Shown: in pieces, positions 8,463 to 13,182 of the stretch
How positions within the stretch are numbered: position 1 is the first letter of the stretch
How the letters are laid out: every line of letters begins with the position of its first letter
Source of the DNA: an uncultured Acidobacteriota bacterium
GTDB lineage: Bacteria > Acidobacteriota > Thermoanaerobaculia > Gp7-AA8
DNA length: 64,000 bases
Reading direction: 5' to 3'
Assembly (NCBI GenBank): GCA_963822445.1
Contig: CAWGHO010000001.1
Location: forward strand, 320,001 to 384,000
The notes under the pieces: model-generated
What the model saw: the letters and a program-made list of their open reading frames with translations, nothing else
Database searches by the model: none
What the model was told of the DNA's origin: nothing
Position numbers and translations under genes: made by a program

Positions 8463-9149
8463 ATGCGCTTGGTCCTTTTCGACATCGACGGCACGATCCT
8501 GACCGACCGGGGAGCGTCCCGGGACGCCTTCCGGGTCGCGCTGGAGGCCGTTTACGGCTACGACGGCGACCTTTCCCGCTACGATTTTTCCGGCCGCACC
8601 GATCCCCAGATCGCCCGGATGGTCCTGCGCGATCAAGGGCTTACGGATGATTCGATCGATGATCATCTCCCCCGCCTCTGGGAGATCTACCTGGAAGGCC
8701 TGGCCCGCAACGCGACGACCGAGCGGGTTCGCGTGCTCCCGGGCGTCCGCGAACTGGTGGCAGCCCTTCACGAGCATGAGGACGTCGTCCTTGGCCTACT
8801 GACCGGAAACATCGAGCCCGGCGCGCGGCTGAAGCTCGGAGGCGCGGAGATGAACGGCTACTTTGCCTTTGGAGCCTTTGGCAGCGACTCAGCGGATCGG
8901 ACCAAGCTCCCTCCGATCGCCGTGGAGCGTGCGTCGGAGCATTGCCACCATCAGTTCAGCGGCGCGGAGGTGGTGATCATCGGCGACTCGGTCTACGACG
9001 TCCGCTGCGGCGTGCCGTACGAAGCCACGACGATTGCCGTCGCATCGGGAAAGACAGCGCTGGAAACACTTCGCGCCGAGAACCCTCGGCACCTTTTCGA
9101 AAGTGCCGCGGACCTCGGCGCGTTGATGAATGCGATTCTGGGGAGCTAG
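8463..9149 (+). CDS. HAD-superfamily hydrolase
   Basis: LFDIDGT motif I, LLTGN, IIGDS..D motif IV. Confidence 0.92.
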   Translation: MRLVLFDIDGTILTDRGASRDAFRVALEAVYGYDGDLSRYDFSGRTDPQIARMVLRDQGLTDDSIDDHLPRLWEIYLEGLARNATTERVRVLPGVRELVAALHEHEDVVLGLLTGNIEPGARLKLGGAEMNGYFAFGAFGSDSADRTKLPPIAVERASEHCHHQFSGAEVVIIGDSVYDVRCGVPYEATTIAVASGKTALETLRAENPRHLFESAADLGALMNAILGS

Positions 9150-10000
9150 TCGTCGTCGCGGCGATGGCGCTCGGGGATGCTCACCTTGCCAGCCACGCGC
9201 GCGAAATCGATTCCGCCGCTGCCCTTGCTCGAGACGGTGAAGCGTCCGCCGACGTCGGCCACGTCGACTCCGCCGGAGCCGTCGTTGTCGACGAGCACGT
9301 CGCCGCGCACGTTCTGGACGGCGATCGAGCCCGAGCCGTCTTCGCGGATGCGCAGCGAACCGGTGACGCGCGCGACGGTGATCGAGCCGGAGTCGTCCTC
9401 GATCTCGATGTTGCCCTGAATGTTCTTCGCGATGATCTCGCCGGAGTCGTCTTCGATGACCACGTTGCCGGCCACGCCGTCGATGTCGATCGAGCCGGAA
9501 TCGTCATTGATGACCAGACCGCCGCTGATGTTGCGCACTTCGATGGAGCCGGAGTCGTCGTCGATCTTCGTGGCGCCGGTGTTGGCGACGTGAATCGAGC
9601 CGCTGTCGTCGTCGATCACGACCGGCATTCCGGTCGGGACGCTGACGCTGAAGTCGAGGCGTGCGCTGAAGAAGCCGAAGACCACCGACTTCTCGGGGAT
9701 GTCCGCGGTGATGTGCAGTTCGCCTCCCTGCCGGCGGGTGGTGAGGCTCATGCGGTCGAGGAAATCGCGCTCGGAGGTGCAGGCCGTGCCGGCCGCGACG
9801 AACTGGGTGAGACCGTTCGTGCCTTCGACTTTCAGTGAGCCCGACTCGGCGTGAACGACTACTTTCGTGACGCCCGCGAGCGGAGCGTTGACGCGGCGGG
9901 CCGCGGTGTACTGGCAGTCGTCCTGACCGAAGAGACCGCCCCCGGCGAAGGCGGTGGTTGCCACGAGCGTGGTCGCTGCTGCGATCGCTGCGAGTTTCAT
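9146..10000 (-). CDS. Secreted DUF4097/adhesin-like beta-solenoid protein
   Basis: Signal peptide; about 8 tandem DDSGSI-type repeats. Confidence 0.85.
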   Translation of the reverse strand: MKLAAIAAATTLVATTAFAGGGLFGQDDCQYTAARRVNAPLAGVTKVVVHAESGSLKVEGTNGLTQFVAAGTACTSERDFLDRMSLTTRRQGGELHITADIPEKSVVFGFFSARLDFSVSVPTGMPVVIDDDSGSIHVANTGATKIDDDSGSIEVRNISGGLVINDDSGSIDIDGVAGNVVIEDDSGEIIAKNIQGNIEIEDDSGSITVARVTGSLRIREDGSGSIAVQNVRGDVLVDNDGSGGVDVADVGGRFTVSSKGSGGIDFARVAGKVSIPERHRRDDD

Positions 10001-10070
10001 CGGATTCCCTCCATCTCGAGTACTGCTTACGGAACGTCGCGGGAGGGGTTTCAATTCGTTGCCGCTCGTT

Positions 10071-10093
10071 GCCGGCGAGGACGCCGGCGGTCC
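10071..10093. repeat. REP-like GC palindrome (IS target, left part)
   Basis: gccggcgaggacgccggcggtcc; same family as copies at 47661-47755. Confidence 0.75.
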
Positions 10094-10179
10094 AGATGAG
10101 ATGAGAAGGCCAACCTCCCACGCAGTCGCAGGAATCTGCGCTGCAAGGAATGCGTCGAGCGCAAGAAAGGAGATTGGCC

Positions 10180-11286
10180 GTGAAAAAGTCTACCAGCGTC
10201 GTCACGTGTACGAGCATGCAGAGCAATATCCGTGAAGCCGAGGTGATCGGGATCGATCTTGGAGATCGCGCATCGCACTTCGTGGGTCTGAACAGAAGCG
10301 GCGAAGTAGTGGCCACAGGAAGGGCGACGACGACAGCGACGGCGATCGCCAACGAGTTCGGCGCGATCGGACCAAAGTTGATCGCCATCGAGACAGGTAC
10401 CCACTCTCCTTGGGTCTCGAGACTGCTCACGCAGTTGGGCCATCGCGTAGTCGTGGCCAACTCCCGAAAGCTTCGTCTGATCTACGAAAACCGCCGCAAG
10501 AACGACCGCGTTGACGCCGAGTACCTGGCACGGCTGGTGAGGATGGACCCGAAACTGCTCGAGCCGATCACGCATCGTTCCGAGCGCGACCAGCAGCATC
10601 TGGCACTTCTGCGTTCGCGCGACAAGCTGGTGCGGACTCGCACAGGTCTGATTACGCATGTTCGGGGCACGGTCAAGTCGATCGGTCTGCGGCTGCCGGC
10701 TTGCTCTGCAGAGGCGTTCGTAAGTCGGGCGATGCCTCTGATCCCGAAAGAGCTGAAAGCTGCTCTTGACCCTGTTCTTCGCAACGTCGAGCAGCTGAAC
10801 AAAGACATCGCCGGCTACGACCGCAAGATCGAGCAACTCGCCAGGACCGAGTACCCGGCCGCGAAGCTGCTCATGCAGATCACCGGTGTGGGACCCGTGA
10901 CGTCGGTGGCGTTCGTGGTCACGGTGGGCGACCCGGGCCGGTTCAGGAAAAGTCGCACGGCGGGAGCGTGGGTCGGTCTCACGCCGGGCCAATCCGCCTC
11001 GGGTCAGCAGGACCCCCAGATGAGGATCACCAAAGAAGGAGACAACTATCTGCGACGGCTACTGGTCAGTTGCGCGCAGTACATCCTCGGGCCGAATCGA
11101 CCAGACTCGGATCTGCGCCGGCACGGGTTGGCGCTGGCGGCGCGAGGCGGAAAGAACGCGAAGAAACGAGCCGTGGTCGCGGTCGCACGAAAACTCGCGG
11201 TGCTCATGCACAGGCTGTGGCGTACGGAAGGCGTGTACGAACCTCTGTTCAACGCCAACAGGAGTGCCGAGCACTCAGCAGCTTGA
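10180..11286 (+). CDS. IS110-family transposase/recombinase
   Basis: IGIDLG, IETG, KNDRVDA (DEDD); GLTP..SASG serine; AVVAVARKLA; AGGAG RBS before GTG 10180. Confidence 0.97.
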   Translation: MKKSTSVVTCTSMQSNIREAEVIGIDLGDRASHFVGLNRSGEVVATGRATTTATAIANEFGAIGPKLIAIETGTHSPWVSRLLTQLGHRVVVANSRKLRLIYENRRKNDRVDAEYLARLVRMDPKLLEPITHRSERDQQHLALLRSRDKLVRTRTGLITHVRGTVKSIGLRLPACSAEAFVSRAMPLIPKELKAALDPVLRNVEQLNKDIAGYDRKIEQLARTEYPAAKLLMQITGVGPVTSVAFVVTVGDPGRFRKSRTAGAWVGLTPGQSASGQQDPQMRITKEGDNYLRRLLVSCAQYILGPNRPDSDLRRHGLALAARGGKNAKKRAVVAVARKLAVLMHRLWRTEGVYEPLFNANRSAEHSAA

Positions 11287-11329
11287 GAACCAGGTAGAAC
11301 CGATCAGCAAAGAAAGAAACTCGACTCGA

Positions 11330-11520
11330 TCCCTCATCCGGGTGACTGCGAGCGGCGGCTTGGTCGGCAGCGATGCCAGACCGTGGACCAGATGGCAGCA
11401 CCCAGTTGAATCGGACCTCAGCATGCACCGAGCTCGATCGAGCTCACCAAGAGTGCGAATGGAAGCAAGGTCAGGACGAGCGGCGAGAGACAAAGGAGGG
11501 CGGCGCCACGTCGCCGCCCC
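11330..11520 (+). ncRNA. Putative bridge/seek RNA of the IS110 element
   Basis: Two stem-internal-loop-hairpin units; GCGGCGGCT (11352-11360) is the exact reverse complement of the right flank; ATGGAAG (11459-11465) equals the IS right end; boundaries approximate. Confidence 0.7.
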
Positions 11521-11609
11521 TTGACAGGATCAGGCCTTCTCATGGAAGCCGCCGCAGGTGATTCGCCACTTCACCGGCACGCCGGGAAAAGCGCCTAAGT
11601 GCCCTTGAT

Positions 11610-13154
11610 TCAGCGCCGCCAGCGGATCGTGGCGCCCTCTTTCGGGAAGGGCAGTTCCGTGGAAACAGTCCAACGATCGCCCGAGCGGCGCATGACCCGG
11701 ATCCGGCGATTCGCGTCGAGCGTCGCCGTCGGGACGCGAACGTCTGCCGGCAGCCGCACCCAGCCGGATGGCGTCCGCGTCCAGATCAACTCGTAGTTCG
11801 GCGTGACGAAGAAAAAGGCGTCGTCCTTTCCCGCCGGCCCGAGCGACCAGGAGAGCACGGAGTCGCGCAGGGTGAGCTCGACCGACAAGGGCATGTCCGC
11901 GACGGCATGAGCGCGCACGACGTCGTACTCCTGCCGCAATTCCGGCGGCGGCGGGATGCGGCCGATGACGAAGCCGGGAATCGAGGCGATGACTCGCGGC
12001 GGCTCTTCGCGTTTCACGGTTCGCCGCAGCCACTGCACGCCTTCGATGTACCAGCCATTCGCGTTGGTGAAGAGCGGATCGACGCTCGGCGGCGCGTTCC
12101 AGACGAACAGCCCCGCGCGTTGCCATGATGCGAGGTTCGCGCGAAACGTCTGGCCGTGCAGAACACCGCCGACGGCGAGGCCGATGCAAAGTGCGCCGAA
12201 GACGAGTTGCTCGATTCGCGTTCGTGCCCCGATCGCAGTCAGCACGACCAATACGGCCACGCCGGCGAAGAGATAGCGGCTGTCCAGCGGCGTGAGCCGC
12301 GCAATCGGCAGCAGCACGAACACGATCGCGGCAAAGACAATCAACACAGCACGCCAACGTTCGCGTATGAGTGCGGCGACGAACAGCGCGACGGCCAGCG
12401 TCAGCACACCCAGCGCCGCACGTCCACTGCTCCCCGCGATGACTGTCCATCCGGTGATCACGACATCGATCGGCGACCCGGTCGCGCTGCCGTACCCACC
12501 GAACGAACCGAGAATGGCGATCCGCCAGATTAGGTACGCAATCGCCGCGACACCGCACAACGCACCATCGCGGATCACCGCACGCCGATCGCGTTCCGTC
12601 ACGACGTCCTGAACGACGACGAGCAGCGGCAGCGGGACATAGACCTCTTTCGCCAGACAGGCGATGAAGTACAGCGCGACTCCGACAAGTGCCCGATCGC
12701 GCCGAAACGCAATCATCGCCAGCGCCGCGAGCAACAGGCCGAGCGCGTAGTGCCGGTCCATGATCAGCGTCGCCACGGTGAAGGCCGGCTGCGACAACGC
12801 CAACGCCCCCGCGCCGGCGGCCGCCATGAGCTCATTCGTGAACGTTCGCAGGTACCCGTACACCGCGAGGATCGCCGCCGCGAAAACGAGCAGGTGATGC
12901 GCGTAAAAACCGCGCGGATTGAGCCCGAACAGCGCCAGATCGAGCTCGTTCGCCAGCATGAGCATCGGCGTGAAGCTCGCCGTCGTCTGATGCCGCCACG
13001 CCTCCGCCGATATCAGATGATCGATCGCACGGGAGTGCATGACGCCGTAGAGCAGCTGCGGGTCGTCCCACAGCCACCACTGCGTCAGCACCGTTCCGTG
13101 CGCGACCGCGACGAGGATGACCAGCAGCCCGATCGCGACTGCATCGCGTTTCAT
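11610..13154 (-). CDS. Multi-pass membrane protein (GT-C/PMT-like glycosyltransferase fold)
   Basis: WDD in first loop, GFYAHHLLVF, ACLAKEVY, many TM helices. Confidence 0.7.
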   Translation of the reverse strand: MKRDAVAIGLLVILVAVAHGTVLTQWWLWDDPQLLYGVMHSRAIDHLISAEAWRHQTTASFTPMLMLANELDLALFGLNPRGFYAHHLLVFAAAILAVYGYLRTFTNELMAAAGAGALALSQPAFTVATLIMDRHYALGLLLAALAMIAFRRDRALVGVALYFIACLAKEVYVPLPLLVVVQDVVTERDRRAVIRDGALCGVAAIAYLIWRIAILGSFGGYGSATGSPIDVVITGWTVIAGSSGRAALGVLTLAVALFVAALIRERWRAVLIVFAAIVFVLLPIARLTPLDSRYLFAGVAVLVVLTAIGARTRIEQLVFGALCIGLAVGGVLHGQTFRANLASWQRAGLFVWNAPPSVDPLFTNANGWYIEGVQWLRRTVKREEPPRVIASIPGFVIGRIPPPPELRQEYDVVRAHAVADMPLSVELTLRDSVLSWSLGPAGKDDAFFFVTPNYELIWTRTPSGWVRLPADVRVPTATLDANRRIRVMRRSGDRWTVSTELPFPKEGATIRWRR

Positions 13155-13182
13155 AGAAGGCGGCCCGGAGGCCGCCCTCATC

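Follow-up and report, generated by a model that had tools for sequence, protein, structure and literature searches.

The window analysed here is a stretch of 64,000 nucleotides (nt) from the genome of an uncultured Acidobacteriota bacterium (GenBank assembly GCA_963822445.1, contig CAWGHO010000001.1, positions 320,001 to 384,000 of the forward strand), and this account concerns a single insertion sequence (IS) that begins close to position 10,100 of it. The element carries one long open reading frame (ORF), which encodes a transposase and leaves 84 nt of non-coding sequence upstream of the gene (10096-10179) and 262 nt downstream of it (11287-11548). A preliminary description of the locus had read it as an IS1111-type element of the IS110 family whose RNA guides, of the kind known as bridge RNA or seekRNA, can be recognised in the downstream region; every string that it quoted, whether junction, stem, hairpin or guide segment, is present base for base and in its place. 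The features of the locus are collected in Table 1.

Table 1. Features of the insertion sequence and its surroundings, in window coordinates
Feature	Position	Strand	Basis or remark
Left half of target, GGCGGTCC plus AG core	10086-10095	+	CGG[A/T]CCAG common to the three copies; AG may instead belong to the element
Insertion sequence, 1453 bp	10096-11548 (equivalent: 10094-11546)	+	ends set by junction alignments of three genomic copies
TGAG, 4 nt directly preceding the left inverted repeat	10097-10100	+	proposed partner of the 5' donor guide
Left subterminal inverted repeat, 11 bp, ATGAGAAGGCC	10101-10111	+	perfect match to 11533-11543; kept in homologues
Transposase gene, 368 amino acids, GTG start	10180-11286	+	AAAGGAG ribosome-binding site at 10166-10172, 7 nt before the start
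Seek/bridge RNA scaffold, two domains (target loop and donor loop)	11333-11474	+	covariance model R1, 127.4 bits
5' target guide, GCGGCGGCT	11352-11360	+	would pair with the top strand of AG core plus right flank
3' target guide, GGACC-AG (11385-11391)	within 11385-11394	+	same sequence as left flank plus core, so would pair with the bottom strand
5' donor guide, CTCA	11417-11420	+	reverse complement of the 4 nt directly preceding the left inverted repeat
3' donor guide, ATGGAAG	11459-11465	+	repeats the final 5 nt of the element together with the core
GC-rich hairpin	11497-11520	not assigned	adjoins the upstream side of the outward -35 box; similar hairpins in several homologues' right ends (by eye)
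Outward-facing TTGACA	11521-11526	+	TTGAC 21-22 nt from the element end in 24/24 distinct right ends
Right subterminal inverted repeat, 11 bp, GGCCTTCTCAT	11533-11543	+	perfect partner of 10101-10111
Right half of target, CCGCCGC	11549-11555	+	CCGCC common to the three copies

The element, its copies and its insertion site

The genome amounts to 6.0 Mb in 3 contigs and holds the insertion sequence in 3 copies that are 100% identical to one another. Identity between them stops at ...CGG[A/T]CCAG on the left and restarts with CCGCC... on the right. In the window the left junction reads GGCGGTCC-AG (10086-10095) followed by ATGAG (10096-10100), and the right junction reads CATGGA-AG (11541-11548) followed by CCGCCGC (11549-11555), so that AG is present at both and the boundaries of the element carry an ambiguity of 2 bp. 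Unoccupied paralogous sites (GGACCAGCCGCC; GACGCCGGCGGACCAGCCGCCGAGCCGGCGGCGCTCC) hold a single AG, which means that insertion produces no target duplication and bears out the AG core that the preliminary description had proposed to be shared by the target and the ends of the element. Each inverted repeat is set back from its junction by 5 nt, a distance that becomes 7 nt on the left when the AG is included and 3 nt on the right when it is left out. Because the three copies are identical we infer recent mobility, and the insertion sequence is intact and was probably active recently. Among public sequencing runs, only two soil-metagenome DNA runs carry small shares of its sequence words (0.11 and 0.05).

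The site that the element occupies belongs to a recognisable repeat. Exact GG[A/T]CCAGCCGCC sites number 10 in the genome, all of them unoccupied, and this exact empty-site motif is not enriched there, with 10 matches compared with 19 for a reversed control word. Of the ten sites, five fall within a double hairpin that resembles repetitive extragenic palindromic (REP) sequences and has the form gCCGGCG-gGAC-GCCGGCG-NNNCAG-CCGCCG-gGAC-GGCGGC-GCTCC. A looser pattern finds 17 unoccupied REP-like double hairpins in the genome, for example at G000:C3:169167, C3:175501(-) and C2:1845044(-), in which the linker between the two hairpins is 6-7 nt long, variable in sequence and mostly ends in CAG. It is directly after the CAG of this linker that the element is inserted, and positions 10067-10095 and 11549-11555 of the window are the two halves of one such repeat. 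The flanks of copy 2, when joined, give exactly the REP-like double hairpin; since they restore the repeat, insertion is a simple addition of 1453 bp with one AG common to target and element. Judged by these matches, the target is a small REP-like family and not an abundant word. Relatives in other genomes occupy similar repeats, in which the second hairpin reads CCGGCG.

The transposase likely starts with the GTG at 10180, at which position its closest relative (L004) has ATG. The protein matches the Pfam domains PF01548 (DEDD_Tnp_IS110, E = 5.9e-17) and PF02371 (Transposase_20, E = 2.2e-21) and scores 228.9 bits, at a cut-off of 140, with the NCBIfam model NF033542, "IS110 family RNA-guided transposase". 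By these profiles the element is of the IS110-family type, in the broad sense, with an RNA-guided transposase. In an alignment of 21 homologues D26, E71, D109, D112, G266, P269 and G275 are invariant, and S274-G275 corresponds in alignment to the SG of the IS621 transposase, a protein of solved structure in which the DEDD residues and the serine of SG are described as catalytic (PMC11208158). Similarity to the IS621 transposase extends only over the C-terminal residues 227-346 (E = 3.8e-7). About 21 residues precede the start of the family profile at residue 22. Identity to plasmid-borne relatives is 27% for the IS4321-family transposase (tblastn, residues 22-303), about 31-32% for ISShdy1 and at most 35% among the matches listed.

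A conserved RNA structure and its guide segments

When species genomes were scanned with the single protein, 3 loci were obtained in metagenome-assembled genomes (MAGs) of Acidobacteriota, at 83, 82 and 65% identity, and a six-frame search of 401 genomes of the phylum at E <= 1e-40 matched 24 genomes, with full-length matches at 44-66% identity. The full-length homologues all share a scaffold downstream of the gene, ...GGGYGACUGCG-variable-hairpin-variable AGAU-GGCAGCRCCC...AUGCAC-hairpin-AGUGCG-N-AUGGAAGC..., and its two-domain layout is kept in about 25 homologous elements of other Acidobacteriota genomes. From 26 distinct homologue versions, with a locus from a genome flagged as unpublished left out, an RNA alignment and a covariance model, R1, were built. 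In the genome of the element itself, model R1 finds the 3 element copies only and no orphan RNA genes. One decayed relative (L006, the second copy in the MAG of L004) has lost its left end and left inverted repeat, and its transposase match is broken after residue 218; it retains an intact RNA region and right end.

In the window the outer stem of the first domain joins GGGTG/CTGC (11340-11344, 11346-11349) with GCAG/CACCC (11395-11398, 11399-11403), the inner hairpin (11362-11382) joins GGTC-GGCA (11362-11369) with TGCC-A-GACC (11374-11382), and the second stem joins GACCT (11414-11418) with AGGTC (11468-11472). The minimum-free-energy fold of 11330-11480 gives the outer stem and the inner hairpin, and RNAalifold, applied to the 26 versions, recovers the outer stem and the inner hairpin at its base and adds a GCAC/GUGC stem in the second domain, with 7 of 18 pairs changed on both sides. 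In this consensus structure 95.5% of cells are paired, compared with 24-47% when the partners are slid by 1-3 columns, and its covariation score is 0.216 compared with 0.093, with 0 of 500 shuffles as high; the count used the structure that RNAalifold had itself predicted from this alignment, a circumstance that already gives it an advantage over the slid versions, and because the homologue sequences are mutually related these figures are not probabilities.

Two segments in the first internal loop correspond to the two halves of the insertion site. The 5' target guide, GCGGCGGCT, is the reverse complement of the own-copy sequence AGCCGCCGC at 9 of 9 positions, and over the three genomic copies the match is 9/9, 8/9 and 7/9. 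Directly after the 3' target guide comes ATG (guide and ATG together, 11385-11394), identical to the opening bases of the element and possibly a handshake-like extension. In two homologues, L016 and L019, this guide is followed by GUG and not by AUG or AUU. Whole-genome word frequencies lead one to expect GCGGCGGCT 0.012 times, GGACCAG 0.019 times and the 3' donor guide ATGGAAG 0.015 times by chance in 262 nt.

The agreement between guide and DNA is maintained when both change. For the 5' target guide the best 9-nt match at 28 junctions is 9, 8 or 7 in 25 and 6 or 5 in the other 3, and for 22 distinct guides the mean agreement with core and right flank is 7.59 of 9 positions, compared with 4.74 when guides and flanks are permuted. 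The 3' target guide, read in a fixed register 5-6 nt ahead of the GCAGC stem, matches 7, 6, 5 or 4 of 7 nt at 12, 8, 4 and 1 of 25 junctions respectively, and over 20 distinct guides an average of 4.35 of the 5 left-flank bases agree, compared with 1.65 on permutation. For neither guide did any of 10000 permutations do as well (0/10000), figures that overstate independence because the homologues are kin. The initial guide tables included the locus from the unpublished-flagged genome as one row and gave the same picture.

Individual homologues illustrate the range of sequences that is covered. L005 has the 5' guide CGCCGGCT (CGCCGGCU) and the 3' guide CGAGCCAGAT (CGAGCCAGAU) with the left flank GCCGAGCCAG and the right flank CCGGCGAG, and L013 has the 5' guide TTAATCGCCT (UUAAUCGCCU) with the right flank GCGATTAC (GCGAUUAC). 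The guide of L011 is CCTCCTCCCT and its right flank GGAGGAGG, and the 5' guide of L014 is AACGACCUGCU and its right flank CAGGUCGU. In L036 the core itself is AA, the left flank ending in AA, and the 5' guide carries UU and the 3' guide AA.

The second internal loop holds two segments that correspond to the ends of the element. The 3' donor guide matches the right end at 7 of 7 positions in 24 of 28 cases, and its variants go with variant ends, AUAGAAG with CATAGAAG and AUAGAAA with CATAGAAA. The 5' donor guide lies at positions -8 to -5 counted back from the invariant GCAC stem. At 25 left junctions it matches its partner 4/4 in 16, 3/4 in 8 and 2/4 in 1, compared with 39 of 432 non-self pairs with a different guide that reach 4/4. 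The guide and partner pairs observed are CTCA/TGAG, CCCA/TGGG, CCTT/AAGG and TCCA/TGGA; a further pair, ACCA/TGGT in L023, was seen by eye and left uncounted because the contig ends there.

Two copies in one genome (L014 and L033 of G112) carry the same RNA, with the donor guide AUGGAAG, and have the right ends CATGGAAG and CATAGAAG respectively; since the ends differ and the RNA does not, one copy is mismatched to its own donor guide. L016 has the right end CATGGAGG and the donor guide AUGGAUG, and L016 and L019, with their GUG after the 3' target guide, show a variant core or handshake region outside the simple scheme. Two extensions of the donor pairing were tried and rejected. The first was core pairing of the 5' donor segment, through the C three bases before the GCAC stem and the G of the core, and this C is unchanged where the core is AA (L020 and L036). 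The second was a donor-loop handshake between the bases after AUGGAAG and the right flank, and the next base is C in nearly all homologues regardless of flank (by eye, uncounted).

A lack of covariation between guides and flanks among homologues had been named beforehand, in the preliminary description, as a result that would refute its bispecific-RNA reading; the comparison was made, and covariation was found. The target-loop segments that it had picked out, at 9/9 and 6/7 (GGACCAG) to the flanks of their own copy, both covary with flanks, and the segment ATGGAAG that it had recognised as identical to the right end covaries with right ends. Of the fourth guide it had said that it was only partly recognisable and had given no position; it can now be placed as CTCA. 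The reading of the locus as an IS1111-type element with a bispecific RNA is supported by four guide segments that covary with DNA across homologues.

It can nevertheless be argued that the second stem-loop (11414-11472) contains no working donor guide, that the protein reads the ends through the inverted repeats and that a short RNA with the target loop suffices. There is a precedent in ISEc11, for which an 82-nt short seekRNA alone is reported to have supported transposition, and better than the 154-nt form (PMC11187229), and the 5' donor segment described here is only 4 nt long, with core pairing not evident. Against it, variation in the 3' segment follows the right end (ATGGAAG, ATAGAAG and ATAGAAA each with the matching end), the 5' segment varies in step with the 4 nt that precede the left repeat, well beyond the non-self pairs, and the inner GCAC/GUGC stem of the loop is invariant in 26 of 26 homologues. 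We consider this explanation unlikely, and a loop that holds two donor guides is preferred.

Group membership and the strength of the RNA-guided reading

Membership of the IS1111 group is supported by the anatomy of the element and not by phylogeny. Siddiquee et al. (2024, PMC11187229) describe IS1111 members as having subterminal inverted repeats, a non-coding region downstream of tnp that is the longer one, a GL-P----S(t)G motif in the C-terminal domain of the transposase and insertion without target duplication; in their seekRNA the complement of the top strand comes first (5') and that of the bottom strand second, an order that is reversed in the IS110-type. The element in the window has subterminal repeats of 11 bp, within the range of 7-17 bp given by PMC11208160, a downstream region of 262 nt compared with 84 nt upstream, and GLTPGQSASG at residues 266-275, which fits the motif. 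Its insertion is site-specific, between CGG[A/T]CCAG and CCGCC, and without duplication, and its target guides stand in the order described for IS1111.

A related alternative accepts the RNA guidance and places the element in a separate, deep lineage of the IS110 family outside IS1111 proper, the downstream non-coding region and the repeats being coincidental. The distance of the transposase from plasmid-borne relatives speaks for it, with identities of 27% for the IS4321 family and 29-35% for the others, as do its length of 368 amino acids, where 330-350 are reported for IS1111 transposases (PMC11187229), and the fact that model R1 finds no match in the IS4321 locus. Some IS110-type elements, moreover, have a downstream non-coding region according to the same paper. 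The additional length, however, is accounted for by the N-terminal stretch before the family profile, and against the alternative stand repeats that are 11 bp long and subterminal, with a 7-nt extension on the left and a 3-nt extension on the right when the AG is counted on the left, the presence of the GL-P----SG motif and a guide order that is that of all IS1111 members tested in PMC11187229. The alternative seems to us unlikely, slightly more so than a donor loop without function, and IS1111-type anatomy remains the preferred description.

There are a number of observations that weigh against our reading of the element as an RNA-guided member of IS1111, in addition to the kinship of the homologues that was mentioned with the permutations. 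Energetically the fold does not stand out among shuffles (z of -1.08 over 11287-11548 and of -1.53 over 11330-11480, where 17 of 200 shuffles are as stable), for which reason energy is not used as evidence and covariation among homologues is the decisive support. A search of Rfam 15 over 9900-11800 with E up to 10 yielded no bridge or seek RNA family and two chance matches to small nucleolar RNA (snoRNA) inside the gene, and model R1 found no match in three IS110-family loci of E. coli plasmids (IS4321, ISShdy1 and one unnamed). The flank of copy 1, the copy in the window, reads GGTCC where the guide has GGACC, a single mismatch that reduces GGACCAG to 6/7, copies 2 and 3 being matched 7/7. 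The 5' donor guide comprises 4 nt only, and the data do not support its pairing with the element's first base or with the core. The transposase is only 27-35% identical to plasmid-borne relatives, which leaves its place inside the IS1111 clade to be argued from anatomy. With respect to expression, a scan of 9950-11700 found 0 sigma-70-like promoters in the integrated element, the -10 box that would be formed at the circle junction, GAAG-AT with the hyphen at the junction, is weak at 3 of 6 consensus positions (A at position 2 and T at position 6 among them), and a search of public sequencing runs for this sequence gave no RNA run.

That the 3' end resembles the flanks by chance, or through pieces carried over from the GC-rich REP-like repeat, with no guide RNA at all, is scarcely credible: the genome does have 64.5% G+C and is rich in GCCGGCG and GGCGG words, and the folding energy is unremarkable, but each guide word is expected only 0.012-0.019 times per 262 nt, and homologues with unrelated flanks that are not REP-like (GCGATTAC, CAGGTCGT, GGAGGAGG) hold matching guides at the same positions of the scaffold. 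Taking all of this together, we consider it highly probable that the locus is an intact and probably recently active element of the IS110 family, with an IS1111-type layout, that is guided by RNA in the manner proposed below.

Proposed mechanism, known relatives and meaning

What the sequences show directly is the anatomy of the element, with its copies and empty sites, together with a conserved RNA structure and the covariation of guides with DNA. The mechanism outlined here takes transcription, processing, RNA binding, circle formation and reprogrammability from characterised relatives. On excision the element would form a circle, its right end meeting its left end at the shared AG (CT on the other strand). 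This junction would set the outward-facing TTGACA 17-18 nt upstream of the -10-like GAAG-AT, so that TTGACA could be the -35 box of a promoter that is completed only at the circle junction; a circle-junction promoter of this kind is documented for ISEc11 (PMC11187229). From the junction promoter both the transposase gene and the non-coding 3' region would then be transcribed, and out of the latter an RNA of about 140 nt (11333-11474) would be cut and bound by the DEDD/Tnp transposase. The first internal loop of this RNA would read the target, its natural form being the linker between the two hairpins of a REP-like repeat. The second would read the joined ends, AUGGA-AG corresponding to right end plus core and CUCA pairing with the 4 nt before the left inverted repeat. 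Finally the transposase would recombine circle and target at the AG without target duplication.

Further features of the ends deserve mention. On the minus strand the GC-rich hairpin at 11497-11520 is a terminator-like site inside the element, close to its right end, made up of a GC-rich stem of 9 bp and, after it, CCTTTGTCTC; transcripts that run in from the adjacent minus-strand gene could be stopped there. Two minus-strand genes, at 9146-10054 and, upstream, at 11610-13181, stand on either side of the insertion sequence, which therefore may separate both transcriptionally. The former encodes a protein of 302 amino acids with many DDDSGSI-like repeats and an N-terminal signal-like stretch. 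In the 5' untranslated region, between the left inverted repeat and the ribosome-binding site, there is a hairpin GCAG-TC-GCAG-GAAT-CTGC-G-CTGC (10122-10144), and homologues have a hairpin of different sequence at the equivalent position, for example GGGATGCG...CGCTCCC in L013.

The closest functional counterparts are the IS1111 elements for which seekRNA has been described, ISEc11, ISPa11, ISKpn4 and ISPst6 (PMC11187229). The element shares with them a DEDD/PF02371 transposase, subterminal repeats, a downstream non-coding region, the absence of target duplication, what may be part of an outward promoter at the right end and the order of the guides, and ISPa11 likewise is reported to target a REP. 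It differs from them in coming from another phylum, the Acidobacteriota, in its length of 368 rather than 330-350 amino acids, and in being known from sequence alone. From IS4321, a named member of IS1111, it is separated by a transposase only 27% identical and by an RNA scaffold that model R1 does not detect there; the other plasmid-borne relatives, at 29-35%, are IS110-family elements whose group is not established.

The likeness to IS621 of the IS110 group extends to the logic of the RNA. Durrant et al. (2024, PMC11208160) defined four guides in the bridge RNA, with the core included in each pairing, and both systems have two internal loops, each with two guides for opposite strands around a 2-nt core (PMC11208160, PMC11208158). 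When the RNA described here is related to the strand opposite tnp, the core is CT and the left guide precedes the right one, which is also the order in IS621. Two bases, AU, come after the right-type target guide, and these are also the bases of the IS621 handshake guide A81/U82; the donor reads AT-CT as it does in IS621 (dA6, dT7; PMC11208158). We infer this handshake mapping by analogy, and it is beyond the reach of covariation because all homologues begin with AT. The two systems differ in that the RNA lies downstream of the gene here and upstream in IS621, in that the subterminal repeats here are long, and in that one of the donor guides here is short and apparently positioned by the inverted repeat, not by the core. 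ISPpu9 of Pseudomonas putida (PMC12288879) also has a fixed insertion site in a REP and AG dinucleotides at both ends of the element; it is described as an IS110-group element without subterminal inverted repeats and with orphan copies of its small RNA, none of which were found here with model R1.

RNA-guided targeting by IS110 and IS1111 elements was established in 2024 (Siddiquee et al.; Durrant et al.), and for most IS1111 elements, 93.0% of those in ISfinder, a bridge RNA was predicted in the right end (PMC11208160). The element is a good textbook case of this known seekRNA/bridge RNA kind and constitutes no new kind of system. In the part of the literature that was searched, no paper combined Acidobacteria, IS110 and bridge RNA, and the supplements of PMC11187229 and PMC11208160 may list relatives of the clade. 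It is possible, although we hold the odds to be less than even, that the element represents a distinct and uncharacterised IS1111-like subfamily, with a four-guide bridge that applies the logic of IS621 on the opposite strand (CT core, AU handshake), a donor guide set by the inverted repeat and GC-rich hairpins as targets. If active, it would be an orthogonal and compact programmable recombinase, programmable in the sense that its relatives suggest.

The target and donor code of an IS1111-type element can here be read directly from the DNA and checked against relatives. The 4-nt guide that adjoins the inverted repeat is a candidate answer to the question of how IS1111 elements read their left end and, if the subfamily reading is true and the element active, the element would provide a natural test of how they read their own ends. 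To a family that is of interest for genome engineering, the finding adds a clade of soil Acidobacteriota with about 25 natural "reprogrammings" of one scaffold.

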